Shown: positions 6,739 to 56,944 of the stretch, in pieces
Layout: each line of letters begins with the position of its first letter
How positions within the stretch are numbered: the stretch's first letter is position 1
The notes under the pieces: generated by a model
What the model was told of the DNA's origin: nothing
Database searches by the model: none
What the model saw: the letters and a program-made list of their open reading frames with translations, nothing else
Translations under genes and position numbers: made by a program
Source of the DNA: Minisyncoccota bacterium
Lineage (GTDB): Bacteria > Patescibacteriota > Minisyncoccia > Phycocordibacterales > UBA5272
Assembly (NCBI GenBank): GCA_041651055.1
Contig: JBAZJW010000001.1
Coordinates: 373,325-437,324, forward strand
Direction: 5' to 3'
Length of the DNA: 64,000 nt

Positions 6739-6756
6739 TTCCAGCTTCCCTCTTCC

Positions 6757-6846
6757 AGCTGTTAGCTGTTAGCTGTTAGCTGTTAGCTGTTAGCTGTTAG
6801 CTGTTAGCTGTTAGCTGTTAGCTGTTAGCTGTTAGCTGTTAGCTGT
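6757..6846. repeat. tandem 9-mer repeat (AGCTGTTAG), ~10 copies
   Basis: Direct reading. It overlaps the last 5 codons and the stop codon of pth. Confidence 0.95.
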
Positions 6847-7376
6847 CCATTATATCTCTCCATCGCTTTCTGATATCCATCACTCGCGATAGTTTGCAGT
6901 GCACCTAATACACGAGAAGCAATTTCACGAAGTGATGTCTCCTCATCATCCCTAATCTTTCCCATGACATAATCCTGCACATCAGAACCTGATGGTGCGA
7001 GCACGACTTTACCATCGACATCATGTGGAGCAATACCGATACGAATACGAATAAAATCTTTTTTACCAAGAGACTCAATAATGTTTTTTACACCATTATG
7101 TCCACCATCTCCTCTATCAAATGAAATTCTAAATGTTCCAAACGCTAGATCTTTGTCATCATAAATAACAACAAGCTCGCGACCTTCGTGATAGCGTAAG
7201 TATTCACTCACCGCTTTGCCGCTTTCATTCATAAATGTTTCTGGTACGAATATTTCGTAGTCACTCATATGAGCAATGTCGCTTTCTATAGTCGCAAGCA
7301 TCACACGCGCAGCATTGTGACGTGTGCGCGCATACTTTTCACCAGGGTTGCCGAGCGGAACGAGTGTATAAATCAT
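6825..7376 (-). CDS. pth: peptidyl-tRNA hydrolase
   Basis: MIYTLVPLGNPGEKYARTRHNAARVMLA...HNGVKNII matches the Pth family N-terminal and catalytic-His motifs. Confidence 0.85.
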   Translation of the reverse strand: MIYTLVPLGNPGEKYARTRHNAARVMLATIESDIAHMSDYEIFVPETFMNESGKAVSEYLRYHEGRELVVIYDDKDLAFGTFRISFDRGDGGHNGVKNIIESLGKKDFIRIRIGIAPHDVDGKVVLAPSGSDVQDYVMGKIRDDEETSLREIASRVLGALQTIASDGYQKAMERYNGQLTANS

Positions 7377-7471
7377 ACTCGCAGTCTAGCATTAGCTAGA
7401 CTGCGAGTAAATTTTTAATTTTTAGTTCTTAATTTTTAATGAAACACGTAATGCAGGTATCGGTATTTACC

Positions 7472-7500
7472 TAAAAACTAAAAACTGGAAACTAAAAACT
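7472..7500 (+). promoter_or_regulatory. A-rich AAAACT box, copy 1
   Basis: TAAAAACTAAAAACTGGAAACTAAAAACT. It sits 32 nt before a TATACT -10 (7533-7538) and the lepB ATG (7548). Confidence 0.5.
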
Positions 7501-14006: not shown

Positions 14007-14966
14007 ATGCCCACCACATCCACTCTCTCCTCTTCCCTCTCACCTCTTGCCTACGATTTAATAATCGTAGGAGGTGGTCCCGCTGGTACTGCTGCGGCCG
14101 TCTATGCTGCTCGTAAGCAATTACGCTCGCTTCTCATTGTAAAAGAATGGGGAGGTCAATCAACGGTCTCAGATGATATTCAAAACTGGATTGGCACACC
14201 ACACATTTCTGGTGCGAATCTCGCAGCATCATTCAAGTCTCATATCGATGAATACAGAGGTGATATTCTTTCTGTTGCTGAAGGTTCTGGTGTCACCGCT
14301 ATTACAGGCACAGACGGCGACTTCACCGTCACTCTAGAAAACGGAAACGAACACAAAGGAAAGACCGTGATCATTGCCACAGGATCATCTCGTAGGAAAT
14401 TAGACATACCTGGTGCAGATATTTTCGAAAACAAAGGCATCACCTATTGTGCTTCATGCGATGGGCCACTTTTTTCTGGCATGGATGTAGTTGTTGTTGG
14501 TGGAGGAAATGCAGGCTTTGAATCTGCAGCTCAACTTCTCGCTTACTGTAAATCCGTCACACTTCTTTCACGAAGTGAGCCTCGGGCAGACGCCATTACC
14601 GTTGCAAAATTAAAGCAGCGTGAAAACTTTACCCTCGTTACCAATGCCGTTCCCAAGAATGTGCAGGGTTCAGTCTTTGTAGAATCTATTACCTACACCA
14701 AGTCAGAAACAAACGAAGACGTCACACTCCCTGTAGCTGCTGTCTTTGTCGAAATAGGACAACTTCCAGCCACAGACTTCGCGAAAGCTATTGTGAATCG
14801 TGATGCGACGAATCACATCATCATCAATCCACGTACACAAGAAACCTCTACTGTTGGCATCTGGTCAGCCGGTGACTGTACGGACGTGCTCTATCATCAA
14901 AACAATATCGCAGCTGGAGATGCTGTGCGAGCCTTAGAAGATATCTACCTCCATATTCACGCCTAA
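14007..14966 (+). CDS. trxB: thioredoxin-disulfide reductase-like FAD/NAD(P)-dependent oxidoreductase
   Basis: YDLIIVGGGPAGTAAAVYAAR FAD-binding Rossmann fold, CASC redox-active disulfide, VVVVGGGNAGFESA NADPH site. The ORF track starts at TTG 13998. Confidence 0.7.
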   Translation: MPTTSTLSSSLSPLAYDLIIVGGGPAGTAAAVYAARKQLRSLLIVKEWGGQSTVSDDIQNWIGTPHISGANLAASFKSHIDEYRGDILSVAEGSGVTAITGTDGDFTVTLENGNEHKGKTVIIATGSSRRKLDIPGADIFENKGITYCASCDGPLFSGMDVVVVGGGNAGFESAAQLLAYCKSVTLLSRSEPRADAITVAKLKQRENFTLVTNAVPKNVQGSVFVESITYTKSETNEDVTLPVAAVFVEIGQLPATDFAKAIVNRDATNHIIINPRTQETSTVGIWSAGDCTDVLYHQNNIAAGDAVRALEDIYLHIHA

Positions 14967-15023
14967 GTCGTTAGTCGTTAGTCGTTAGTCGTTAGTCGTT
15001 AGTCGTTAGTCGTTAGTCGTTAG
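14967..15023. repeat. tandem 8-mer repeat (GTCGTTAG), ~7 copies
   Basis: Direct reading. It begins immediately after the trxB stop codon. Confidence 0.95.
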
Positions 15024-15100
15024 GTAAATTGTAATGCGGGATAATTTGCTTTGCAAATTATCCCGCATTACCTAACGAAGAACACCCTAACGTCCTAACT
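15021..15100 (+). repeat. 80-bp hairpin module, copy 1
   Basis: Perfect stem GTAATGCGGGATAATTTG-CTTTG-CAAATTATCCCGCATTAC, followed by CCTAACGAAGAAC-ACCCTAACGTCCTAACT. Confidence 0.9.
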
Positions 15101-15141: not shown

Positions 15142-16884
15142 ATGCAAAAATATCTCTCTCTTATTGTTCGTCTCTGGAAAATGCTTAAACCTTTCCACAA
15201 AGACTTCTACTTACAGCTCTTCTCAACAATTATTCAACAAGGAATAACCGTATACGTTATTTACCTGACAGCAAAAGTTCTCGACAATCTCATTCATAAA
15301 AATTTTGAGGTAGCTCTTACTTTAGTGGGTATTACCACTACAATTTCTCTTGCGAAAGTCATCATTGCTTACTTCACCGAAATACATGCCCAGAACAATC
15401 TAGACTTTGCAATACAACAACACCTTCAAGAATATTCATTTAAGAAAATATTCAAATTAAACATTTCTCAATACACAGAAGATCACTCAGCAGTTAAACA
15501 GCAAGTTATAGACCGCGGTGAAGCAGCGATAGACACTATCATCTCTACGCTCATACTAAACCTTCTCCCGACAATAACCCAAGTGCTCTTTGCTATTATT
15601 GCTATTTCATTTTACTCAAAAATAGTTGGTATATGGACCTTTACCTCGCTTCTTATTGTGGTTTTGTGGAGTAACTACTTTGCGAAATATCATAGACCAT
15701 TCATAAAACAAGATATTGAAAATGGTGACAGACAAAAGAGAGTGCGAACAGAATCATTCCAACATCTAAGCCTCATTCGAACCCTTGGTGCCGAAGACTT
15801 CTATCTTGAAAAGTACCTCAACAGTAGACAAAAGGTTATGGACTACAAAAAGTTTGTGTGGAACATTGCCATAAAACATGGCCACAGAAGGTATGGATTC
15901 TTCACGGCATCCAGATCCTTTAGCACCGTCATTATTATTTACTTGGCATACATGGGGACAATAACCGTCGGATCAATCTACGCTGTTTGGGCGTATATCA
16001 GCGAAGCCAATAGTCAGATATTTAGTATTATTCAAGCAATACGACAAATGCCGCTTCGCTTTAGTGAGCTCGAAAAGTACCTAGACATTGTCGACAAAGA
16101 AGCTCTCTTTGACGAGCACGGAAAGAAAACAAAACTTGTTGGTGATATTGTTTTAAACAAGCTCACCTTCAAGTATCCACAGGGAAATATCGAGCTCTTC
16201 AATAATCTTTCTCTCACCATCCCCTACGGTAAAAAAGTTGCTTTCGTAGGTTCATCTGGTTCTGGAAAGTCCACCATTGTTAAATTGCTTCTTCGTATAT
16301 ATACCTACGATGAAGGCTCTATCACTATCGGTGGAGTGGAACTAAAAAACATAGAGGGTAAATATCTTCGAGAGAGTATTGGGTATGTTGAGCAGCACGT
16401 AGATCTCTTCGATGAAACCATACGAGAAAATATTTTAGTCGGTATAAAAAATAAAGACAAAAAAAGTGCAGAGAGAAGGTTGGGTGAAGTTGCAGAACAA
16501 TCTCGCATTTCTGAATTCTACCATCGCCTCGGTAAAGAAAAGTTCGACACGTACATCGGTGAACGTGGTGTGAAATTATCAGGTGGCGAACGTCAGCGTA
16601 TCGGTATCGCACGCGCAATTATCAAGAATCCAGACATCCTCATCTTCGACGAAGCAACGGCATCACTGGACGCAGAGAATGAAGCAAAGGTAATGGAAGC
16701 TATCAACGACGTCTCTCATGGAAAAACATCCATCATTATTGCCCATAGACTCTCTACCGTACGAGATGCTGATAAAATCATCGTCATGGATAAAGGGCAC
16801 GTTGTTGGTGAAGGAACTCACGATGAGTTGATGCAATCGTGTGACATATACCAAAATCTCGTCGCACACCAGTTATCAAGTTAA
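15142..16884 (+). CDS. ABC transporter, fused permease/ATP-binding protein (exporter type)
   Basis: Six N-terminal TM helices, then Walker A GSSGSGKST, ABC signature LSGGERQRIGIARA and Walker B ILIFDEATASLD. Confidence 0.8.
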   Translation: MQKYLSLIVRLWKMLKPFHKDFYLQLFSTIIQQGITVYVIYLTAKVLDNLIHKNFEVALTLVGITTTISLAKVIIAYFTEIHAQNNLDFAIQQHLQEYSFKKIFKLNISQYTEDHSAVKQQVIDRGEAAIDTIISTLILNLLPTITQVLFAIIAISFYSKIVGIWTFTSLLIVVLWSNYFAKYHRPFIKQDIENGDRQKRVRTESFQHLSLIRTLGAEDFYLEKYLNSRQKVMDYKKFVWNIAIKHGHRRYGFFTASRSFSTVIIIYLAYMGTITVGSIYAVWAYISEANSQIFSIIQAIRQMPLRFSELEKYLDIVDKEALFDEHGKKTKLVGDIVLNKLTFKYPQGNIELFNNLSLTIPYGKKVAFVGSSGSGKSTIVKLLLRIYTYDEGSITIGGVELKNIEGKYLRESIGYVEQHVDLFDETIRENILVGIKNKDKKSAERRLGEVAEQSRISEFYHRLGKEKFDTYIGERGVKLSGGERQRIGIARAIIKNPDILIFDEATASLDAENEAKVMEAINDVSHGKTSIIIAHRLSTVRDADKIIVMDKGHVVGEGTHDELMQSCDIYQNLVAHQLSS

Positions 16885-16888
16885 ATGT

Positions 16889-16976
16889 TAGTCGTTAGGT
16901 AAACTGTAATGCGGGATAATTTGCTTTGCAAATTATCCCGCATTACCTAACGAAGAACGCCCTAACGTCCTAACTT
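16889..16976 (+). repeat. 80-bp hairpin module, copy 2
   Basis: Near-identical to 15021-15100 and in the same orientation, so the two copies flank the ABC gene as direct repeats. Confidence 0.9.
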
Positions 16977-17306: not shown

Positions 17307-17386
17307 AACGACCAGTCTATAAAGTTAAAAGCAAAAAGTCCATAAAGGGATAAGGGCGGCCACTTCGTGGCCGCCCGTGTTCTCTT

Positions 17387-17413
17387 AAAACTAAAAACTG
17401 GAAACTAAAAACT
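17387..17413 (+). promoter_or_regulatory. A-rich AAAACT box, copy 2
   Basis: AAAACTAAAAACTGGAAACTAAAAACT, 23 nt upstream of TGCTATACT (17437-17445), which lies 7 nt before ATG 17453. Confidence 0.5.
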
Positions 17414-18715: not shown

Positions 18716-18770
18716 GGTTTACCCTAAAGTATCGCTATGGTTTCTTTAGATTTTTCGTGTATATTTTTCT

Positions 18771-18798
18771 AAAAACTAAAAACTGGAAACTAAAAACT
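18771..18798 (+). promoter_or_regulatory. A-rich AAAACT box, copy 3
   Basis: Same 27-mer. It lies 39 nt upstream of TGATATACT (18838-18846), which is 6 nt before ATG 18853. Confidence 0.5.
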
Positions 18799-21544: not shown

Positions 21545-21565
21545 AGGAACAGTATAGAAGAAATA

Positions 21566-21594
21566 CTTTTTAGTTTCCAGTTTTTAGTTTTCAG
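21566..21594 (-). promoter_or_regulatory. A-rich AAAACT box, copy 4 (minus orientation)
   Basis: Reverse complement of the 27-mer. On the minus strand it is followed after 10 nt by TATACT, then 5 nt, then the NUDIX ATG. A partial extra copy lies at 21631-21647. Confidence 0.5.
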
Positions 21595-21636
21595 AAGATA
21601 CAAATACAAGGCGAGGCCTTGTATTAAAAATAGTTT

Positions 21637-22436: not shown

Positions 22437-22688
22437 ATGATAAAGAAAAACATCAGTAACGGTGTGGCACATAAAGTGCCGACGGACCTACGAAGCATCA
22501 TCACTTCTATCTCAGATGTACATGAAGTGTGGGAAGATATCACTCCTCTCGCGCGCAATGAATGGATATGTTGGATTGAGTCTGCTAAAAAAGTAGAGAC
22601 CAGAGCTCGCAGAATAAAGACACTCGGTGAGAACCTGAGGGCCGGAAAACGGAGACCTTGTTGCTGGGCGGGGTGCATGCATCGGTAA
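22437..22688 (+). CDS. YdeI/OmpD-associated family protein
   Basis: PLARNEWICWIESAKKVETRARRI...GKRRPCCWAGCMHR matches the OmdA-domain C-terminal motif. Confidence 0.55.
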   Translation: MIKKNISNGVAHKVPTDLRSIITSISDVHEVWEDITPLARNEWICWIESAKKVETRARRIKTLGENLRAGKRRPCCWAGCMHR

Positions 22689-22910
22689 TTTGATCCATTG
22701 CGTACAATACACAGCAGGAGGAGTCGGTCACCACTAGGGTATTTTTGTTTTGCACTTCGTGTTCACAAAAATACTCCTAGTCCTGACCACGGGAAAAACC
22801 GACAAAATTATTTAATAGAGGAGTCGGTCACAAAATCAGCTCCTTTGTCGCAGATGATTTTCCGACCCGTATTCGACTCCTCTCGAAAGCCAAGCAGTTG
22901 GCTTTCTTAT

Positions 22911-22970
22911 CGCCCACTCATATACAAAAAGAAACATCGTATGATGTTTCTTTTTGTATATGAGTGGGCG
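22911..22970. terminator. 60-bp perfect palindrome; terminator hairpin immediately 3' of tRNA-Val
   Basis: CGCCCACTCATATACAAAAAGAAACATC-GTAT-GATGTTTCTTTTTGTATATGAGTGGGCG. One arm includes the tRNA acceptor 3' strand, and T-runs flank both sides. Confidence 0.6.
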
Positions 22971-23037
22971 ATAGAGGAGTCGAACCTCTGACATCCACAA
23001 CGTCAATGTGGCGCTCTACCAACTGAGCTAACCGCCC
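22965..23037 (-). tRNA. tRNA-Val (anticodon GAC)
   Basis: Reverse complement GGGCGGTTAGCTCAGTTGGTAGAGCGCCACATTGACGTTGTGGATGTCAGAGGTTCGACTCCTCTATCGCCCA folds as a cloverleaf with anticodon loop TTGACGT. Confidence 0.85.
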
Positions 23038-23118
23038 TTATTAATATCTCTACTACCTGCAGGTCTTGTACACGTTTTGATATATCTACCAACTGTATCG
23101 AAAGTTTACTAACTTTCG

Positions 23119-23202
23119 GCATCTTCGCGCAATTACACGTCTCGTGTCCTTCGTCTGGTGACTACGGACATCTTCGGTGCTCTTCGCACCTCGAGCTAAC
23201 CG
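23119..23202. repeat. 84-bp exact repeat, copy 1 (partner at 53875-53958)
   Basis: CATCTTCGCGCAATTACACGTCTCGTGTCCTTCGTCTGGTGACTACGGACATCTTCGGTGCTCTTCGCACCTCGAGCTAACCGC is identical at both loci. It ends in a tRNA 5'-end fragment (GCGGTTAGCTCGAG on the minus strand). Confidence 0.95.
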
Positions 23203-23341
23203 CCCCTCCATCATCTCTAACTGTCCTAATACACTAAACTATACCATACAAAAGGAGAGGTCCAAAAGTTGAAAGAAACGACTTTTTGTGGTAGTATATT
23301 TTTTACTTGGCCACCATCTTTTCTGATATGGACAAGAAGAC

Positions 23342-23413
23342 GGCCCCATCGTCTATCGGTTAGGACACCGGCTTTTCATGCCGGTAAGCGGAGTTCGACT
23401 CTCCGTGGGGTCA
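23342..23413 (+). tRNA. tRNA-Glu (anticodon TTC)
   Basis: GGCCCCATCGTCTATCGGTTAGGACACCGGCTTTTCATGCCGGTAAGCGGAGTTCGACTCTCCGTGGGGTCA; anticodon loop TTTTCAT; T-loop TTCGACT. Confidence 0.85.
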
Positions 23414-23695
23414 TGGTACAAAAATGAGCTAAGCAGAAATGCTTGGCCATTTTTGTTCATGACCCCAAGAAAGACAACTGCTTGTCTTTCGACGGAGAGT
23501 CGAAAGGGCACAGTTCAAGGAGCGAAGAGCACCGAAGATGTCCGTAGCCAGCAGGCGTAGGGCAAAAATAGATAGAGCAAGCGAAACCACGAGCGGCGGC
23601 CGGCGAACTTTTTGAGCGGCGGCGAGAAAAGATTTGTCGGAGACTCTCCGTGGGGTCACAATAAGCAAAGTTCATGGTAAAATAAGGTTATATAC

Positions 23696-24388
23696 ATGAT
23701 TAGTTTTTTAGTCACACATCCGTATTTTACGTCCACTTTAATTCTTATTCCTTTTTGGGTAACACTATTCATCACAAGAAAAGAATCCCGTGCAGAAATG
23801 CTTACAATGGGAAAATATTTAGGTCTTTGCGGGTTTATACTTTCTAGCACTTCTTTGAGAGACTACTGGCACCCAGCATTTATCTTTGGGCCATTTCATA
23901 TGGAAGAAATTCTATACGGTTTTTTGTTTGGTGGTGTTTGTGTTGAAGTAGCAAAGATTTTTTTTAAAGAAAAATATAGACACCACCCCAGACGTTTATC
24001 TTTTTTATTTTTTACTATTATTATTTCTTACGTTATGCTGAAAGTTGGTATAACCTACTTGCAGATAAACTCTATCTATATATATTGTATAGTTTTAGTT
24101 TTTATGGGACTTGCCTGCTACACGCTCGACAGAAAAATCTTACCTCTGCAGTTAACATCAGGACTGCTGGCATTGATTCTAACTTTCACAGTTTTTAAGA
24201 TAGCTCTTTTAGTAAGTCCTAATTTTATACATGACACATGGAAACTAGAAAATATTTCTGGAGTACTCTTTTCTGGGATCCCTTTAGAAGAATACATCTT
24301 TGCTTTTCTACTGGGCTTTGGGGGTTCTAGTTACTATGAAACTTATGAGGGGATTGATGTTACTTCTACAAAACTAAGATTCACTTAA
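23696..24388 (+). CDS. lycopene-cyclase-domain-like membrane protein
   Basis: Two repeats carry the PxEE motif (GPFHMEEILYGFLFG and GIPLEEYIFAFLLGF) on a ~7-TM scaffold. Tentative. Confidence 0.35.
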   Translation: MISFLVTHPYFTSTLILIPFWVTLFITRKESRAEMLTMGKYLGLCGFILSSTSLRDYWHPAFIFGPFHMEEILYGFLFGGVCVEVAKIFFKEKYRHHPRRLSFLFFTIIISYVMLKVGITYLQINSIYIYCIVLVFMGLACYTLDRKILPLQLTSGLLALILTFTVFKIALLVSPNFIHDTWKLENISGVLFSGIPLEEYIFAFLLGFGGSSYYETYEGIDVTSTKLRFT

Positions 24389-29174: not shown

Positions 29175-29204
29175 AGTTTTTAGTTTCCAGTTTTTAGTTT
29201 TTAG
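29175..29204 (-). promoter_or_regulatory. A-rich AAAACT box, copy 5 (minus orientation, no downstream -10 found)
   Basis: Reverse complement of the 27-mer, directly after the tsaD stop and facing back into tsaD. No TATACT follows on the minus strand. Confidence 0.4.
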
Positions 29205-29222
29205 AAAAATACACAGACTAAT

Positions 29223-50311: not shown

Positions 50312-50334
50312 AGTGAGACCAGTATACCTTAACT

Positions 50335-50364
50335 AGTTTTTAGTTTCCAGTTTTTAGTTTTCAG
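50335..50364 (-). promoter_or_regulatory. A-rich AAAACT box, copy 6 (minus orientation)
   Basis: Reverse complement of the 27-mer, 5 nt upstream of TATACT, which lies 10 nt before ATG 50311. Confidence 0.5.
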
Positions 50365-50559
50365 AGAATGCGAAAAGCGAAATCGGCAGATTTCGCTTTT
50401 AGTTTCCGCATTTCCTAACGAAGAACGACCAACGATTAACGAGTAACGAGAGCCTTCTATAATAGTCAGGAATATTCAATAACTTAATATCTAATATTCA
50501 AATCAAATGCATTGCATTTCTTTGAATATTGGTTATTAAAACATTGAATATTGTTGTTA

Positions 50560-51243: not shown

Positions 51244-51334
51244 ATAAACCTGATACTACCACAAAAAAGAAAAACCGCGACAGCAAAAGCTGCGCGGCGG
51301 TAAAGGCGGTAAAAACCGCGAATGTCCTGGTCGA

Positions 51335-51625
51335 TTATTCGAACGAGTCGAACTGGTCGAGTGGGAACCAAAACACATGTTCCGGATGAAGGAATGGCAA
51401 AATGCCGAAATTCACAACGATGGCGTCCTGCAGTGTGCAAACCCCACAGACGACCAACCCTTCACGAAGAGGCAGCAGGGTTTTCCCGTTCGCCTCAACG
51501 ATCACAGAAGATACTGTGTGTGCCTTGAAAAAGACAACAGGTCTTCGCATTTCCGGTAAACGAAGAACATCGCCGACTTGAACACCTTGTTGGGTGGTGC
51601 TCGCCCCACTTCTCGATAGTTCCAT
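51335..51625 (-). CDS. hypothetical protein, GC-rich
   Basis: 96-aa ORF at ~50% GC. No family recognised. Confidence 0.35.
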   Translation of the reverse strand: MELSRSGASTTQQGVQVGDVLRLPEMRRPVVFFKAHTVSSVIVEANGKTLLPLREGLVVCGVCTLQDAIVVNFGILPFLHPEHVFWFPLDQFDSFE

Positions 51626-51752
51626 GATGGACTCTCCTTTTCTGGCGCCATTGTACTAGTGAATAAAGCCTAGGTCAATTATATGGTGTTTGAATATAAA
51701 AAAGCCGCCAGGATTCTGGCAGCAGAAAAGGATCACCTTCTAAGAGACATCT

Positions 51753-52163
51753 TCATCTCGCCGCACGGCATTTACCCCGGCGAGGAGAGATACGGTGACC
51801 GTATCTATTCATGACATGTTCCGGCAGGATAAGTCCTTGCCTGTTCCACTCACAAACAACGAGCCATTTTTTTATCCCTCTTTCTGTTATCACAGAGAGG
51901 AGAGAATACCGGAGCCCATTCGGCCCATACAAAAAAGTCAGGCCTTGCTTCGGTACCTGGAGGTTGACCTGCCTTCCCGTTCCCGCATAAGAGCAGTGAA
52001 CCGGAAACAAGTCTTCTTTGTCGGCGCAACGAGCGATCGTCACAATCTTCGGCCCTTCGCAAAGCTTTGCAGTTGCAAAGGCTTCAAACAAGATAATTTT
52101 AAAGGTCCCGTTTTCGGACATGCCGTGTATTGATGGCACATGTTTCAGTTCATCCATACCCAT
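51753..52163 (-). CDS. hypothetical protein, GC-rich
   Basis: 136-aa ORF at ~50% GC. No family recognised. Confidence 0.35.
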   Translation of the reverse strand: MGMDELKHVPSIHGMSENGTFKIILFEAFATAKLCEGPKIVTIARCADKEDLFPVHCSYAGTGRQVNLQVPKQGLTFLYGPNGLRYSLLSVITERGIKKWLVVCEWNRQGLILPEHVMNRYGHRISPRRGKCRAAR

Positions 52164-52330
52164 TTTTTACTCCTTTTCTTCTGGAAAACAAAATTCGCAC
52201 TAGAAGTATTTCAGGTGCGACACTTTCTAATAATAACACGAAAAGACACTTTTTGCAAGCCCTCTCTTTTTGTCCAGATCTTGCCTAGATTTCATAGTTT
52301 TTTCTTACATAGGGCCACCCTATGTAAGAA

Positions 52331-53356
52331 CTACCCGATAAAGTTCACTTCCCTTTCCAGATGAATATCCGTTGCTTCGGAAACTTTTTCGGTAATTAAT
52401 GTAGCAAAAGCGTCAAGTTCCTCATACGTCGCATCGCCATAATTTACGATTACAAGCGGCTGTGCTGGCCATGTGCCGACATTTCCCACTGTCACCCCTT
52501 TCATCTGTGTCACGTGCTCTATAAGCCATGCTGAGGGCACCTTGTATCCGCCCTCTACATCGTGAATAGGCATATCACACCACTTCGCACGCATAGCATA
52601 TGCTTGAGACCTCGTTACAATAGGATTCTTAAAAAATGACCCCGCATTCGGATAGGTTTTGTAATCTGGAAGCTTCTCGGCACGTGTACGGAGAACAAGA
52701 TCTCGCACGTCGTTCGGTGTCAGGTCTTGTTTTAAAGTAAGTGTATCGAGTGGCTTGTAGGTAAGTTTTGGATTCTTGGTTTTGGAAAGTTTCATCGTTG
52801 CCTCTGTGATGATGTATCTCCCTTTTTCACGCTTGAATAGTGAATCGCGATATCCGAACTGACACGCATCATTTGAAAAAGAAACGAATTCCATGGTTGT
52901 GATGTCATATGCGCGGAGTGATACGAATACATCTTTAAGCTCCACTCCATACGCGCCGATATTTTGTACAGGAGAAGCACCGACTGTCCCTGGTACACCA
53001 GAAAGATTTTCTATTCCCCACAAATTAGCATCTACGGAAAACTTCACCACATCATCCCACTTCTCCCCTGCTCCGACAGTGAGAAGCACCTCGTCGGCTT
53101 CTGTTTTTTCTGTTGACTGCTGATTGCTGACTGTTGACTGTTTTTTAATTTCCATTTTTACAATCAACAGGTCCGGAAGTATATTTTTAAAAACAGTGTT
53201 CGTTCCTTCACCGAGAACATGAACGCGTAGATTGTTGGCCTTCGCATAATCACACGCTTCACCGAGAGAAACCTCCGAGGTCACGGTCACCATATCTGCC
53301 TCTCCACCAATGTGAAGCGATGTGTAATCTTTAAGAGAGACGTGCTGTATATTCAT
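52331..53356 (-). CDS. murB: UDP-N-acetylenolpyruvoylglucosamine reductase
   Basis: LKDYTSLHIGGEADMVT...VLGEGTNTVF FAD-binding PCMH N-terminus; C-terminal MurB domain. About 20 aa Q/S/T-rich insertion. Confidence 0.8.
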   Translation of the reverse strand: MNIQHVSLKDYTSLHIGGEADMVTVTSEVSLGEACDYAKANNLRVHVLGEGTNTVFKNILPDLLIVKMEIKKQSTVSNQQSTEKTEADEVLLTVGAGEKWDDVVKFSVDANLWGIENLSGVPGTVGASPVQNIGAYGVELKDVFVSLRAYDITTMEFVSFSNDACQFGYRDSLFKREKGRYIITEATMKLSKTKNPKLTYKPLDTLTLKQDLTPNDVRDLVLRTRAEKLPDYKTYPNAGSFFKNPIVTRSQAYAMRAKWCDMPIHDVEGGYKVPSAWLIEHVTQMKGVTVGNVGTWPAQPLVIVNYGDATYEELDAFATLITEKVSEATDIHLEREVNFIG

Positions 53357-53376
53357 ATCTCCATGATATCAAAACA

Positions 53377-53404
53377 AATACACTTCGTATACGAAGTGTA
53401 TTTG
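53377..53404. promoter_or_regulatory. 28-bp perfect palindrome 21 nt upstream of the murB start
   Basis: AAATACACTTCGTATACGAAGTGTATTT. Confidence 0.5.
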
Positions 53405-53607
53405 TTGGTGGTGCGCGGTCCTGGATTCTCCGACAAGTTTCGTCTCGTCGCCACTCAACGAACTCGCCGGCCGCCGCTCGTGGTTTTTCTTGCTAGAAAA
53501 ACATCACTGCGCCCTTTCGAATCCAGACGAAACATGTGCAGACATGTTTCTGACCGCGCACTAAAAAGAAAAACCCCTCCTCTGTCGAGGGGGATTTTTC
53601 TTTTTAG

Positions 53608-53680
53608 TGCGCGGTCCTGGATTCGAACCAGGGACCGCTCGAGTATCAGTCGAGTGCTCTACCAGCTGAGCTAACCGCGC
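53608..53680 (-). tRNA. tRNA-Ile (anticodon GAT)
   Basis: Reverse complement GCGCGGTTAGCTCAGCTGGTAGAGCACTCGACTGATACTCGAGCGGTCCCTGGTTCGAATCCAGGACCGCGCA; anticodon loop CTGATAC. A terminator hairpin (CCCCTC..GAGGGGG plus T-run) follows at 53560-53607. Confidence 0.85.
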
Positions 53681-53874
53681 TTTTTTATATTACTACCTAC
53701 CGACTTTGTGCACGTTTTAACAATCTACCACCTGTGTCAAAAGTTTGCTAACTTTTGACATCTTCGCGGCCGAGCCATCTCGAGCTAACCGCGCATATTT
53801 TATTTAACTACCCACACACTTCATACACGTTTGAACAATCTACCAGCTTGCGTCTTGTTCTTGCTGAACCAAGA

Positions 53875-53958
53875 CATCTTCGCGCAATTACACGTCTCGT
53901 GTCCTTCGTCTGGTGACTACGGACATCTTCGGTGCTCTTCGCACCTCGAGCTAACCGC
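53875..53958. repeat. 84-bp exact repeat, copy 2 (partner at 23119-23202)
   Basis: Identical sequence, in the same relative position upstream of a minus-strand tRNA. Confidence 0.95.
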
Positions 53959-54107
53959 ACTCTCCCAGATAAAACATAACTTTCAACGCACGTGTCACAA
54001 AATACTACCATAAAAATGACGAAGTAGAAAGCCCTTGGGCACGACTTGATTAATATGATATTTTGTTGTAGAAATAGACCACAGTTCATTCAACTAAGGA
54101 GACCACT

Positions 54108-54524
54108 ATGGCAACGGGATTCCAAAAATCAACGACCAAAACAAAGAGGGCTGCAACCGCAATAACACAGCAAAGCAATCAAACAATGGAGCACCACATT
54201 TGGTGCATACATACGGAGGACGATATAACCCAAAACGAAATCACTGTCTATTTCTCAAACAAAGGAGAGTCCGGCTTTAGCAAGACAAGAATTTTCTACA
54301 ACTGCAAAGAGCTTCATGTGTTCATGGTTTCATTTGCATTTGTCATGCACTTAAACAAAAATGAAGCTCAGAGGCCATACAAATTCACAGCCTATCATAA
54401 AGAAAGCAAAGGGAGACCTTGGGCGTTATGGAAAGGCGGAGAGAAGACAGTGCCGAAACAACTCAGAAAGGTTACACACCTCATCTTCGGCAAAGGTTCT
54501 CCTCTCAAAACAAAAAATGGATAG
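54108..54524 (+). CDS. hypothetical protein
   Basis: 138 aa. Strong SD CTAAGGAGACCACT-ATG. Sits between the 16S and tRNA-Ile genes on the opposite strand. Confidence 0.45.
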   Translation: MATGFQKSTTKTKRAATAITQQSNQTMEHHIWCIHTEDDITQNEITVYFSNKGESGFSKTRIFYNCKELHVFMVSFAFVMHLNKNEAQRPYKFTAYHKESKGRPWALWKGGEKTVPKQLRKVTHLIFGKGSPLKTKNG

Positions 54525-54799
54525 GCAAGAACGGAGAAAGCCGGATCGCAATGACGCGTCCGGCTTTTATATTAGTTTACACTAATACATATCGCAAGTA
54601 TTCAAACTATGAGGGTTCATAATTAAGATACTTCTGATATCTATTAAGGAAAACATCTTTCTACACAAAGACAAGGGTAGGCCACGTTTTTTGTAGTGAT
54701 TGTTTTATACATTACTAACATTGTGCTTTCTATTGATCTTTCTTTTGTCACACTCTAGCGCTTGCGCGACTTTTGTTACATTTCGTAGTAACACGAACT

Positions 54800-56633
<1,834 letters not shown>

Positions 56634-56944
56634 ATTTAATAGAGTGTGACAAAAGAAAAAACAAAAAAATGCACAATGTTTATGTAATGTATTGTGAAGC
56701 GTCACTTCAGTTCTTTTTTATGTTTAGAATTTCTAAAACAAAAAAGGAGCTGAACAGCTTCTATTAAAATTTCAAATGACTACAATTACTGCTCACTGCT
56801 TATGAGTAAGAAGTAGGACTATTCTATACTGTGCAGCACGTAAAGTCAAGCTTCTAATCAACAACACAAGCCATAACAGACAAACTTTTACAATATCCAC
56901 AGATATGCTTGCCATTTAAGGCTATTTTGATTAAACTCGTAGCA

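Follow-up and report, generated by a model that had tools for sequence, protein, structure and literature searches.

The RtT RNA (RF00391; rttR) of the E. coli tyrT/tyrV operon lies in the tRNA trailer, on the tRNA strand, as a tandemly repeated 178-nt unit. The unit ends in a direct copy of the 3′ end of tRNA-Tyr that starts in the T loop (AATCCTTCCCCCACCACCA, from A58 to an encoded CCA), and an internal antisense stretch, GGGGAAGGAT, pairs with this terminal copy and closes the Rfam consensus fold. The antisense stretch is contiguous and covers only the T-stem strand and 3 nt of the acceptor; a GCGAAGC motif is also present in the units, as are small hairpins, of which one has the loop GCAG. 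RtT is known for one tRNA only, that for tyrosine. The passages on RtT in PMC3318445 (citing Bosl and Kersten 1991) and in bioRxiv 10.1101/2024.07.17.603846 report that it is released from the tyrT primary transcript and describe its role as unresolved. A second RNA, sX4 of Xanthomonas (RF02223), was detected by Northern blot as a 280-300 nt species from the tRNA strand (PMC3300014). Its description was that of an orphan sRNA and not of a module linked to a tRNA. The Rfam model of sX4 consists of a tRNA-Ser, a spacer hairpin and two antisense halves placed around a hairpin, and in its consensus structure these halves are base-paired to the 3′ strands of the acceptor and T-stem of that same tRNA; the model has no sense copy and represents a single isotype.

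Copies of tRNA 3′ ends also arise at the DNA level. At att sites of the T-loop class the 3′ end of the tRNA gene is directly repeated from the T loop, the gene being restored, and arrays are possible; crossover in the T loop by a tRNA-targeting integrase leaves a direct repeat of this extent. Sites that act as folded single strands, such as CTXphi attP(+) and integron attC, consist of two inverted copies with a short spacer, which fold into a mimic of the target duplex. Integration of the latter type would leave the order site, spacer, inverted site and, further on, direct site.

We analysed a 64,000-nt stretch of DNA from a Minisyncoccota bacterium (hereafter the window), for which an initial annotation had reported duplicated tRNA 3′-end fragments at tRNA-Val and tRNA-Glu and an 84-bp repeat shared with tRNA-Ile, interpreted as att-site scars or small non-autonomous elements. 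The observation is real: every one of these repeats exists, within 1-9 nt of the positions first given. Moreover, the Val, Glu and Ile tRNA genes of the window share one layout (3/3), in which the tRNA is followed by a terminator-like hairpin, a split antisense copy, a scaffold and a sense copy. The antisense copy corresponds to the 3′ strand of the tRNA acceptor and T-stem (positions about 54-73) and is split at the 65/66 junction by a hairpin, P4, of 24 nt with 9 bp and a CUGC loop. The scaffold is made of one or two hairpins (P3, P2), and the sense copy covers tRNA positions 56/57-74, that is, from the T loop to just beyond the discriminator. The pattern TTCGA-N7/8-CGAAA-N5-GCAG-N5-TTTCT has three matches in the window, one per tRNA, and none in 100 shuffles. 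The parts of the tRNA-Val locus are the following.

22964-23037, minus strand: tRNA-Val (GAC), found by ARAGORN and Rfam RF00005 (67.7 bits)
22917-22963, minus strand: spacer between tRNA 3′ end and antisense copy, an A/T-rich hairpin (repeat analysis and fold)
22908-22916, minus strand: acceptor half of the antisense copy, TATCGCCCA (TGGGCGATA on the tRNA strand), complement of tRNA positions 65-73
22884-22907, minus strand: P4 hairpin, 24 nt, A-GAAAGCCAA-CUGC-UUGGCUUUC-G on the tRNA strand
22872-22883, minus strand: T-stem/T-loop half of the antisense copy, TTCGACTCCTCT (AGAGGAGTCGAA on the tRNA strand)
22826-22871, minus strand: scaffold, with the junction UACGG and the P2 hairpin (GGUCGG...GUGACC)
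22815-22825, minus strand: truncated sense copy, GACTCCTCTAT, tRNA positions 57-67
22717-22800, minus strand: second, degenerate unit, a P2-like hairpin and then a partial sense copy, GACTCCTCC (22717-22725)
23038-23206, minus strand: upstream unit, with a copy of tRNA-Val positions 1-13 at 23193-23205

A perfect 31-bp palindrome (22908-22938 / 22943-22973) has the Val spacer as its core and extends over the acceptor 3′ strand; P4 is inserted where acceptor meets T-stem within the antisense copy. In the predicted fold the truncated sense copy pairs with the T half of the antisense copy as helix P1b. The hairpin-interrupted copy of the tRNA-Val 3′ end had been recognised before, but it is inverted with respect to the gene, not direct, and its hairpin measures 24 rather than 23 nt; the equivalent interrupted inverted copies at tRNA-Glu and tRNA-Ile had been overlooked. 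Similarly, the AGAGGAGTCGGTCAC fragments are genuine, but the exact one is at 22817-22831 and the other, with one mismatch (GGAGGAGTCGGTCAC), at 22717-22731, instead of at 22808 and 22718; they are direct partial copies of tRNA-Val positions 57-65/67.

The tRNA-Glu and tRNA-Ile loci are organised as follows.

23342-23413, plus strand: tRNA-Glu (TTC), found by ARAGORN and Rfam
23414-23459, plus strand: Glu spacer, a terminator-like hairpin and T-run (23428-23447 followed by CATTTTTGTT)
23460-23504, plus strand: Glu bipartite antisense copy, made of TGACCCCA, the P4 hairpin (23468-23491) and ACGGAGAGTCGAA
23505-23641, plus strand: Glu scaffold, with AACCACGAGCGGCGGCCGGCGA...TTGTCGGAGA in common with the Ile element
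23642-23658, plus strand: Glu sense copy, GACTCTCCGTGGGGTCA, tRNA positions 57-73 (17/17)
53607-53680, minus strand: tRNA-Ile (GAT), 3′ of the 16S rRNA gene, found by ARAGORN and Rfam
53561-53606, minus strand: Ile spacer, a G+C-rich hairpin flanked on both sides by A- and T-runs, terminator-like on both strands
53516-53560, minus strand: Ile bipartite antisense copy, made of TGCGCGGTC, the P4 hairpin (53528-53551) and TCTGGATTCGAA
53430-53515, minus strand: Ile scaffold, with the P3 and P2 hairpins
53413-53429, minus strand: Ile sense copy, GAATCCAGGACCGCGCA, tRNA positions 57-73 (17/17), followed by CCACC
53681-53960, minus strand: two tandem units upstream of tRNA-Ile

The 17-nt copy of the tRNA-Glu 3′ end is exact and sits at the annotated 23642-23658. 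The sequence that the Glu and Ile flanks had been said to share is indeed present, as CCACGAGCGGCGGCCGGCGA at 23587-23606 (plus strand) and 53464-53483 (minus strand), where none would be expected by chance. In the Glu scaffold P3 is disrupted, a 53-57 nt insertion (23512-23564) standing in place of its 5′ strand. A hairpin and T-run also lie 3′ of the Ile element on the tRNA strand. An intrinsic-terminator scan was positive for the Glu spacer (23428-23447, plus strand) and the Ile spacer (53574-53593, both strands) and did not flag the A/T-rich Val hairpin. A terminator accounts for the spacer only, not for the copies or the scaffold.

The pieces upstream of the tRNAs, the 84-bp repeat included, are a separate, related phenomenon, that is, pseudo-copies of the tRNA 5′ part that are broken by small hairpins and arranged in tandem with promoter-like sequence. 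The Val upstream unit contains inserted hairpins including the 84-nt repeat, a small hairpin (23098-23119), a D-arm remainder (CAGTTGGTAGA) and a promoter-like stretch. Each of the two Ile units opens with a copy of tRNA positions 1-13 (53782-53794 and 53948-53960), and the distal one carries the second repeat copy. The identity of the two 84-nt copies was borne out at 100% (23120-23203 versus 53875-53958, one base away from the original start), and it is best read as recent copying between two leaders with a common GCGGTTAGCTC. An inverted piece of this repeat does recur at tRNA-Glu, but it is longer than the 30 bp claimed, with 53 nt at 23512-23564 and 85% complementarity; the insertion in the Glu scaffold belongs to the same module as the 84-nt repeat. 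Among the fetched loci, the 5′ part of the tRNA is copied upstream in 22/180 tRNAs. A conserved TGGTAGA upstream of tRNAs, tRNA-Glu among them, was considered as a promoter motif and ruled out by three further loci (L091, L080 and L076), in which the upstream units are pseudo-copies of the tRNA 5′ part that extend to the D arm or anticodon arm. The 26-nt core of the repeat had no match in metagenome contigs, and the contig scan found no relatives of the neighbouring 230-aa protein.

Set against the described systems, the window modules resemble RtT and sX4, both poorly understood, more than they resemble an integration scar. Like RtT, they lie in a tRNA trailer on the tRNA strand and end in a direct tRNA 3′-end copy (17/17 for Glu and Ile, truncated for Val), and in the predicted folds, and in consensus helices 1 and 3, the antisense copy likewise pairs with this terminal copy; in contrast to RtT, their antisense copy is split by P4. 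With sX4 they share the order of tRNA, spacer hairpin and two antisense halves around a hairpin. RtT and sX4 follow the same logic as the window modules, but the window reaches neither Rfam model. The RtT model, which scored 133-137 bits on E. coli tyrT/tyrV as a positive control, had no match in 22600-23750 (E<=10), in the whole window (gathering threshold, 45 bits) or in seven related loci (E<=1), and since the window elements give no RtT match at E<=10, shared ancestry with RtT is not demonstrated. The sX4 model (gathering score 70 bits) likewise had no match in the window; sub-threshold matches to a tRNA-Ser plus its module occur in L098 (the best, 41.5 bits), L026 and L064, where much of the score comes from the tRNA itself. 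In comparison with att sites, the window elements (100-250 nt) contain no integrase or cargo, have an extra inverted copy with a conserved hairpin and a covarying structured interior, involve all isotypes and are absent from viral contigs. The order of site, spacer, inverted site and direct site recalls what integration of the CTXphi/attC type would leave, but the target here is a tRNA 3′ end rather than dif or attI, no XerCD- or IntI-type enzyme is implicated, and the scaffold has RNA-like constraints.

The design appears to be shared by hundreds of genomes of the candidate phyla radiation (CPR); its split antisense pattern occurs at at least 119 genome loci. Among the matches listed, the titles are almost all those of Patescibacteria, with a few Oxalobacteraceae/Burkholderiaceae and Chlamydiae; in most cases the nearest tRNA lies at a distance of 15-45 nt and converges with the matched strand, and the tRNAs adjoined are of 19 isotypes, every copy fitting its own tRNA. 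In the fetched loci, a bipartite antisense copy accompanied 63/180 tRNAs versus 4 in a control with swapped tRNAs, with a P4 insert of 24-25 nt in 55 of the 63 and the loop CUGC in 53 of the 59 hairpins whose loop could be read, including those with unrelated stem sequences. A sense copy was found downstream of 69/184 tRNAs versus 2 upstream, and even tRNAs with no adjoining pattern match had one in 14/60 cases (23%), with 0 upstream and 0 in the swapped-tRNA control. The left edge of the direct repeat is at C56/G57 in 46/60 cases, and its right edge is at most 2 nt past position 74 in 36/60. The sense copy is mostly exact even when the scaffold has diverged; it is truncated at the tRNA-Val of the window and in L109 and L076. 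In tRNA-Val orthologues both copies track the tRNA's own changes and the changes in P2 are compensatory. The middle of the Val scaffold is identical at 45/46 positions to that of the tRNA-Ser element in L064. Scaffold type varies among orthologous tRNA-Glu loci; the element is present in the window, L114 and L088 and absent in L076, these genomes being too diverged for precise excision to be called. Tandem and mixed-type arrays occur in L107, L057, L114, L087 and L091. Elements of 100-250 nt leave no room for a gene, and only one direct copy in the fetched loci, a 2-mismatch match at 1617 nt (L018), is distant enough from its tRNA to enclose a gene. In 2.9 million viral contigs only 2 chance matches were obtained, far from any tRNA and with unpaired 'stems'. 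A literature search brought up no direct earlier description of tRNA-flanking repeats in CPR bacteria.

Across 25 elements, 90.1% of the cells were paired, versus 65.9% after shuffling and 38-49% in slid controls, and double-change cells numbered 211 versus 69 in the shuffled set, indicating strong covariation. The tRNA-sense strand folds better by about 6 kcal/mol in 53-54 of 62 elements, whether the whole element or the scaffold alone is considered (p about 1e-9); on this strand the elements have more G than C and more A than T, and the pair adjoining the foot of P2 is G·U in 15/19. The tRNA-derived helices show no such strand bias of G·U pairs (43 versus 41 in P1, 8 versus 4 in P4). Counts in the P4 hairpin and the tRNA-derived helix were for this reason dropped as a strand test, the scaffold alone being informative. 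The tRNA copy pairs with the antisense copy at 91% Watson-Crick and with many perfect arms, the palindrome of tRNA 3′ end and antisense copy often being perfect over about 30 bp, whereas pairing between the antisense and sense copies is 83%. The minimum-energy fold of a read-through transcript is the strand-swapped form, with the module as a T-loop insertion.

We infer the strand and the RNA nature of the module from its thermodynamics, from base composition and from a single wobble pair that is conserved. Our preferred reading, held tentatively and with slightly less than even confidence, is that it would be a co-transcribed tRNA-trailer RNA, a conserved attachment of tRNA genes and not a leftover of phage integration. 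The module would act as RNA on the tRNA-sense strand and would be made by read-through only, because a strong terminator-like hairpin separates it from the tRNA. Its antisense and sense copies could then pair to form a closed, Y-shaped fold, whose main helix would copy the acceptor/T-arm stack of the tRNA with a 3′ strand that is continuous as in the genuine tRNA. Alternatively, the antisense copy may pair with the tRNA's own 3′ strand in a long hairpin, in many cases without a mismatch, that has the terminator as its cap, which is the state that the sX4 consensus depicts, while the sense copy would pair with the tRNA 5′ strand. The closed fold is not always possible, because the sense copy is truncated at the tRNA-Val studied here and in L109 and L076. 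This two-state strand swap might control the fate of the read-through pre-tRNA, or the tRNA end-processing enzymes might cut the module out as a separate small RNA, as reported for E. coli RtT. Several observations, besides the intervening terminator-like hairpin and the truncated sense copies, count against a trailer RNA: identity to the cognate tRNA is not something that mimicry towards a protein would call for, the symmetric A/T runs of the spacer suit a convergent transcript equally well, the often perfect palindrome of about 30 bp suggests copying of DNA rather than selection on RNA, the tRNA-copy helices lack a G·U strand bias, P3 is disrupted in the Glu element, and the tRNA-Glu of L076 has no element at all.

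A serious rival, although on balance rather unlikely, is that the module is a miniature non-coding insertion element in the tRNA T loop. Such an element would replace the tRNA 3′ end with one of its own and bring along a terminator and the antisense copy, the original 3′ end being displaced downstream to become the sense copy, and would be moved by a recombinase encoded elsewhere or via a folded single-stranded or RNA intermediate; once it is excised as a circle, its only tRNA 3′ copy would form a single rod-like duplex with the antisense copy. A direct repeat that begins in the T loop (C56/G57) and stops shortly beyond the 3′ end is what T-loop crossover predicts, and the tandem and mixed-type arrays, the differing scaffold types at orthologous tRNA-Glu loci, the absence of the element in L076, the near-identical scaffolds at different tRNAs and genomes (as for Val and the Ser element of L064) and the patchy distribution across phyla point in the same direction. 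So do the better-kept pairing of tRNA with antisense copy and the minimum-energy fold. However, in agreement with the initial annotation, the Pfam content of the neighbouring genes revealed no integrase, nor is there a transposase, within several kb of either locus; the L018 match excepted, no direct copy in the fetched loci is distant enough to enclose a gene, and viral contigs gave no real match. For its ends to be matched at 19 isotypes, either they would have to be copied from the target or a structure-specific enzyme would have to be at work, and no enzyme of that kind is known for tRNA genes. Furthermore, copies that track tRNA changes and compensatory changes in P2 imply long residence under constraint, and the scaffold, with its G·U bias and its excess of purines, is consistent with RNA. 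A plain att scar is disfavoured, because the most conspicuous copy is inverted and split by a hairpin of constant geometry and because a covarying scaffold with RNA-like strand asymmetry separates the copies; one site-specific integrase would be insufficient, since each copy is matched to its own tRNA in 19 isotypes, and a sense copy that is usually exact despite a diverged scaffold argues against a decaying scar. The other half of the initial interpretation, a small non-autonomous element, is compatible with the T-loop-bounded direct repeats, the tandem units and the lineage-specific gain and loss. Reverse transcription of a mature tRNA and a retroviral-type primer-binding site were both dropped, because CCA after the sense copy is not general (about 6/55 copies versus about 3 expected). 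The Ile sense copy is followed by CCACC although its gene has no encoded CCA.

That DNA metabolism at strongly transcribed tRNA genes gave rise to the copies as neutral by-products, without a function of their own, seems improbable. Template switching at the terminator palindrome would lengthen this palindrome as far as the tRNA 3′ end, and partial 5′ and 3′ copies would result when short repeats slip or cross over unequally, which agrees with perfect arms of about 30 bp that differ in sequence between related genomes, with tRNA-derived helices free of G·U bias, with the existence of tandem units and with partial direct copies on both sides of tRNAs. Such processes do not account for a fixed-size CUGC hairpin at one exact junction (53-55/63), for the conserved scaffold sequence with its strong covariation and strand asymmetry, or for the recurrence of the design in CPR bacteria, Chlamydiae and Betaproteobacteria. 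We consider a small RNA gene on the opposite strand, one that runs towards the tRNA, ends at a shared bidirectional terminator and thus has a 3′ part equal to the tRNA 3′ end, to be a very improbable explanation of the module. Convergent genes with a common terminator are frequent, the A- and T-runs of the spacers are symmetric and the terminator scan was positive for both strands of the Ile spacer, but on that strand the scaffold folds worse in 53/62 elements and the conserved G·U would become an A·C mismatch; no promoter-like site was found there at the Val/Glu loci (22600-23800), or on either strand at the Ile locus (53300-54100), and the analogues RtT and sX4 are both tRNA-sense. Finally, parts of missed tRNA genes or collapsed-repeat assembly artefacts, the two explanations named as possible refutations at the outset, are effectively refuted by scans and independent assemblies. 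Neither ARAGORN nor the Rfam tRNA model (E<=10) detected an additional tRNA on either strand, the latter finding in 22600-23750 just the two that were already known; the copies form no cloverleaf by ARAGORN or RF00005, and no T-stem 5′ strand adjoins the copied T loop. This repeat does break assemblies, one Logan contig stopping at the very edge of the 53-nt module that is repeated, but the 559-kb contig and an independent Logan assembly (SRR8542065) agree base for base, being identical across 3.8 kb, and the same architecture is found in more than 100 other independent assemblies, among them isolates and one complete genome. Two further ideas were set aside: TIGR-Tas dual-spacer guide arrays, a lead from the literature with 36-nt units, two non-pairing 9-nt spacers and adjoining Tas genes, do not fit, and a bipartite antisense acting in trans in an H/ACA-like or external-guide-like manner has no supporting protein and is an idea only.

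Under either the trailer-RNA or the insertion-element reading these regions matter for annotation: assemblies break at them, and they can be mistaken for att sites. If the module is a tiny insertion element, non-coding and able to rebuild the tRNA 3′ end, it would be an unusual form of mobile DNA, with target-matched ends. Going beyond the trailer RNA of the window, it is possible, though doubtful, that Patescibacteria and, sporadically, Chlamydiae and Proteobacteria carry an unrecognised, phylum-wide class of tRNA-coupled structured RNAs, of which RtT and sX4 would be proteobacterial members. Each such RNA would be fitted to its own tRNA by the antisense and sense copies of the tRNA 3′ strand and would make up, jointly with that tRNA, a two-state strand-swap device for its maturation, quality control or regulation. 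If the module is a functional RNA, it would connect RtT and sX4, orphans since their description in 1991 and 2011, respectively, and would offer hundreds of sequences for comparing a structure that pairs with itself or with the tRNA 3′ strand, and a sizeable share of the tRNA genes in a huge, little-studied radiation would have a dedicated partner RNA.

The repeats listed in the initial annotation around the tRNA genes of the window were all found in the sequence, with coordinates off by 1-9 nt. Alignment of the three regions downstream of the tRNAs revealed, in addition, a flanking architecture common to all three that had been overlooked. The tRNA genes and their associated copies are as follows:

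22964-23037, minus strand: tRNA-Val-GAC gene (ARAGORN and Rfam)
23342-23413, plus strand: tRNA-Glu-TTC gene (ARAGORN and Rfam)
53607-53680, minus strand: tRNA-Ile-GAT gene (ARAGORN and Rfam)
23642-23658, plus strand: Glu sense copy, 17 of 17 nt identical to the tRNA 3′ end
53413-53429, minus strand: Ile sense copy, 17 of 17 nt identical to the tRNA 3′ end
22815-22825, minus strand: Val sense copy, truncated to 11 nt
22717-22800, minus strand: second Val unit, degenerate

Read on the tRNA strand, each tRNA is first followed by a spacer of 16-47 nt, which in most cases forms a hairpin with an A-run on one side and a T-run on the other; terminator scores were obtained for the spacers at Glu and, on both strands, at Ile. 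Beyond the spacer, the 3′ strand of the tRNA is copied in antisense as two halves, complementary to tRNA positions 65/66-73 and 54-65, respectively, with a hairpin (P4) placed between them. The antisense copy is followed by a scaffold, made up of hairpin P2 alone at Val and of P3 and P2 at Glu and Ile, and by the sense copy. The pattern TTCGA-N7/8-CGAAA-N5-GCAG-N5-TTTCT, which describes the split antisense copy with P4, has three matches in the 64 kb, one per tRNA, and none in 100 shuffles. In single-sequence folds, helices form between the antisense halves and the sense copy, with P4 emerging at the acceptor/T junction. That is, the closed fold on the tRNA strand is predicted to have the topology of the acceptor/T-arm stack with a continuous 3′ strand, like a real tRNA. 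In the Glu element, the 5′ strand of P3 has been lost to an insertion of 53-57 nt. The last bases of the Glu sense copy fall within a promoter-like site (GTCACA-17-TAAAAT with TG; 23655-23683, plus strand). The start codon of the next gene (23696) follows 13 nt further on, so that the Glu module may overlap the promoter of that gene.

The tRNA-Ile gene is located downstream of a 16S rRNA gene (54893-56640, minus strand) and is followed by murB, not by a 23S gene. The 16S gene measures 1748 nt against a model of 1533 positions, implying about 215 nt of insertions, and is flanked by a 41-nt inverted repeat (54717-54757 and 56640-56680, 88% complementary) resembling an RNase III processing stem. 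The interval between the 16S gene and tRNA-Ile holds, on the opposite strand, an ORF of 138 aa without Pfam match (54108-54524, plus strand).

A second type of unit occurs upstream of tRNAs. In 22 of 180 tRNAs, positions 1-13 are directly repeated 70-470 nt upstream, with no inverted and no downstream copy among the 180. These units are pseudo-copies of the 5′ part of the tRNA, reaching the D arm or the anticodon arm, interrupted by small hairpins and followed by ~45 nt of promoter-like sequence (loci L076, L080 and L091 from other genomes); in the window, tRNA-Val has a single such unit and tRNA-Ile a tandem pair. The 84-nt repeat reported near tRNA-Val and tRNA-Ile is exact (23120-23203 and 53875-53958) and runs from GCGGTTAGCTC, which is common to both tRNAs, through inserted hairpins to GCGAAGATG. 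The insertion in the Glu scaffold is a third copy of its core (85% similar), and all three copies are in tRNA-sense orientation. We read this repeat as a small lineage-specific module copied between tRNA flanks; a search of the JGI metagenome collection with its 26-nt core gave no exact match. A contig of an independent assembly of the same strain (Logan SRR8542065_107050) starts at 23570, a few bases past the 53-nt insert (23512-23564), suggesting that the repeat interferes with graph-based assembly. For the octamer CGAAGATG, 14 sites were counted in the window (e.g. 66, 699, 1639, 2646, 6004, 13638, 16641 and 54482) versus ~2 expected; six are in tRNA flanks and eight elsewhere.

In a collection of species-representative genomes the pattern matched at least 119 loci. 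Among the match titles shown, almost all were from Patescibacteria (Paceibacterota, Yonath-, Kaiser-, Campbell-, Lloyd- and Nomurabacteria, and MAGs labelled Saccharibacteria), with a few from Undibacterium, Oxalobacteraceae or Burkholderiaceae, cultured isolates among them, and a few from Chlamydiae. In most matches the closest tRNA called by ARAGORN lies 15-45 nt away, in convergent orientation relative to the matched strand. The tRNAs concerned belong to 19 isotypes, and each match reproduces the T-loop, T-stem and acceptor sequence of its own adjoining tRNA. The sense copy (on the tRNA strand, i.e. the complement of the tRNA 3′ end on the matched strand) was found 55-190 nt beyond the pattern match in 62 of 122 cases. 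Allowing ≤2 mismatches, it was present downstream of 69 of 184 tRNAs in the fetched loci versus 2 upstream, and for tRNAs located >400 nt from any pattern match the figures were 14 of 60 versus none upstream and none when another tRNA's sequence was used as query. A search blind to the P4 sequence detected the two antisense halves at 63 of 180 tRNAs, versus 4 with swapped tRNAs; in 55 of the 63 the halves were separated by 24-25 nt, and 53 inserts held a CUGC-loop hairpin, usually with a 9-bp stem, including stems that do not fit the search pattern. Since the fetched loci were picked via the pattern, these frequencies hold for module-rich genomes and not for bacteria at large.

An alignment of 25 two-hairpin elements on the tRNA strand gave an RNAalifold consensus of 32 pairs in six helices, with at least one double change in 26 pairs. 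Standard pairs occupied 90.1% of the cells versus 65.9 ± 1.1% after shuffling, cells changed on both sides numbered 211 versus 69 ± 7, and sliding the partners by 1-3 columns lowered pairing to 38-49%; the search pattern itself dictates the P4 loop and the four P4 pairs that are invariant, but not the five variable P4 pairs, P3 or P2. Conserved unpaired junctions precede P3 (UCGAA-AGNCGGAGC-AUG) and follow it (CGAG-NCGGGGUCGCGA), and a GAGCGAAGCGAG-like motif caps P2 and also forms the spacer loop in some loci. The two strands are not equivalent. Folding energies favour the tRNA-sense strand for the whole element in 54 of 62 cases (mean 6.1 kcal/mol; Wilcoxon p = 8e-10) and for the scaffold alone in 53 of 62; this strand contains more G than C (0.30 versus 0.22) and more A than T (0.26 versus 0.21). 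Furthermore, in 15 of 19 parseable cases the base pair adjoining the P2 foot is G·U when read on the tRNA-sense strand and would be A·C on the opposite one, whereas no G·U strand bias was seen in the helices built from tRNA copies (P1, 43 versus 41; P4, 8 versus 4). This suggests RNA-like evolution of the scaffold on the tRNA strand. The tRNA-derived parts are held matched to the tRNA by something stricter, possibly selective pressure to remain fully complementary to the tRNA, possibly copying at the DNA level. The tRNA 3′ end, spacer and first antisense half often form a perfect palindrome (12 of 26 arms of ≥20 bp are mismatch-free), reaching 30-32 bp, unusually long for bacterial chromosomes, at tRNA-Val of the window and at L015, L076, L103 and L025. 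Palindromes of this length in these four loci and in L030, L050, L089 and L094 have loops of 3-5 nt and include the last 9 nt of the tRNA.

The tRNA-Val-GAC loci (the window, L109, L076, L114, L088, L091, L080, L087 and L023) were compared. Both copies track the T-stem and acceptor sequence of each tRNA, while the P2 and spacer stems vary by compensatory changes, which points to long residence under constraint. At the neighbouring tRNA-Glu, L114, L088 and the window differ in scaffold type, and the element is absent from L076; tandem units, some of mixed type, are present in several loci.

The flanking regions gave no Rfam family at threshold, only spurious hairpin matches at E ≤ 10. Still, the window modules share their logic with two Rfam families. 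The tyrT/tyrV trailer of E. coli K-12 holds 178-nt RtT units (RF00391); Rfam detects four of them (NC_000913.3, 1286600-1287700), including one that separates tyrT from tyrV. Every unit terminates in AATCCTTCCCCCACCACCA, the 3′ end of tRNA-Tyr from A58, is closed by an antisense stretch in the Rfam structure, as in the window modules, and contains a GCAG-loop hairpin and a GCGAAGC motif, a vocabulary similar to that of the CPR scaffolds. In the sX4 model (RF02223), a tRNA-Ser precedes antisense halves located on either side of a hairpin, and the structure drawn pairs these halves with the 3′ strand of the tRNA itself; the model gave sub-threshold matches on three fetched loci, and sX4 has been detected in Xanthomonas as a 280-300 nt RNA (PMC3300014). 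The covariance models place the window elements in neither family; by analogy, they would work like both.

Read-through transcripts of tRNA-Ile and tRNA-Val were folded separately, and in both the minimum-energy structure was strand-swapped: the tRNA 3′ strand pairs with the antisense halves in a long terminator-capped helix with P4 as a branch and, for Ile, there is additional pairing between the sense copy and the 5′ acceptor strand of the tRNA. The other state, an ordinary cloverleaf plus the closed module, has an equal number of base pairs by our helix count, indicating a built-in isomerism rather than predicting the form present in the cell.

Other repeats were noted in the window. The intergenic motif AAAACTAAAAACTGGAAACTAAAAACT occurs at least six times with 84-98% identity (7464-7500, 17377-17413 and 18762-18798, plus strand; 21560-21595, 29175-29212 and 50331-50368, inverted) and may be a promoter, terminator or protein-binding signal. 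Tandem heptamer arrays, (AGCTGTT)n and (AGTCGTT)n, are found at 6743-6854 and 14966-15021, and a 96-nt repeat (15005-15100 and 16880-16975, 95% identity) holds a 41-nt palindrome (GTAATGCGGGATAATTTGC...). The ~1.1 kb between an RsmI-like gene and murB (51244-52330) contains only two ORFs, of 96 and 136 aa, both without Pfam match, and no Rfam hit.

The initial observation was thus confirmed and extended, and its interpretation as integration scars is partly supported. The edges of the direct repeats are those expected of a crossover in the T-loop, and the pairing between tRNA and antisense copy is better conserved than that between antisense and sense copies, which fits an element carrying its own hairpin. 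For these reasons a non-coding insertion element stays the main rival, although we consider it less likely than an RNA module. As originally stated, no integrase gene was found by Pfam content among the neighbouring genes, all of ordinary kinds (hydrolase, NUDIX, DUF4386, OmdA, lycopene-cyclase-like, ATP-grasp, Rce1-like, SPOUT, MurB, Cmk, DsbB and RsmI-like), a pattern search of a viral collection returned only two chance matches, and 19 isotypes are too many for one integrase.

With the anatomy, distribution, covariation, strand asymmetry and agreement of each copy with its cognate tRNA all observed, the best-supported account, which we put forward tentatively, is that of an RNA module of the tRNA trailer, similar to RtT and sX4 and widespread in Patescibacteria. 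Such a module would be transcribed by read-through, may be processed by tRNA enzymes, and may have a regulatory role.
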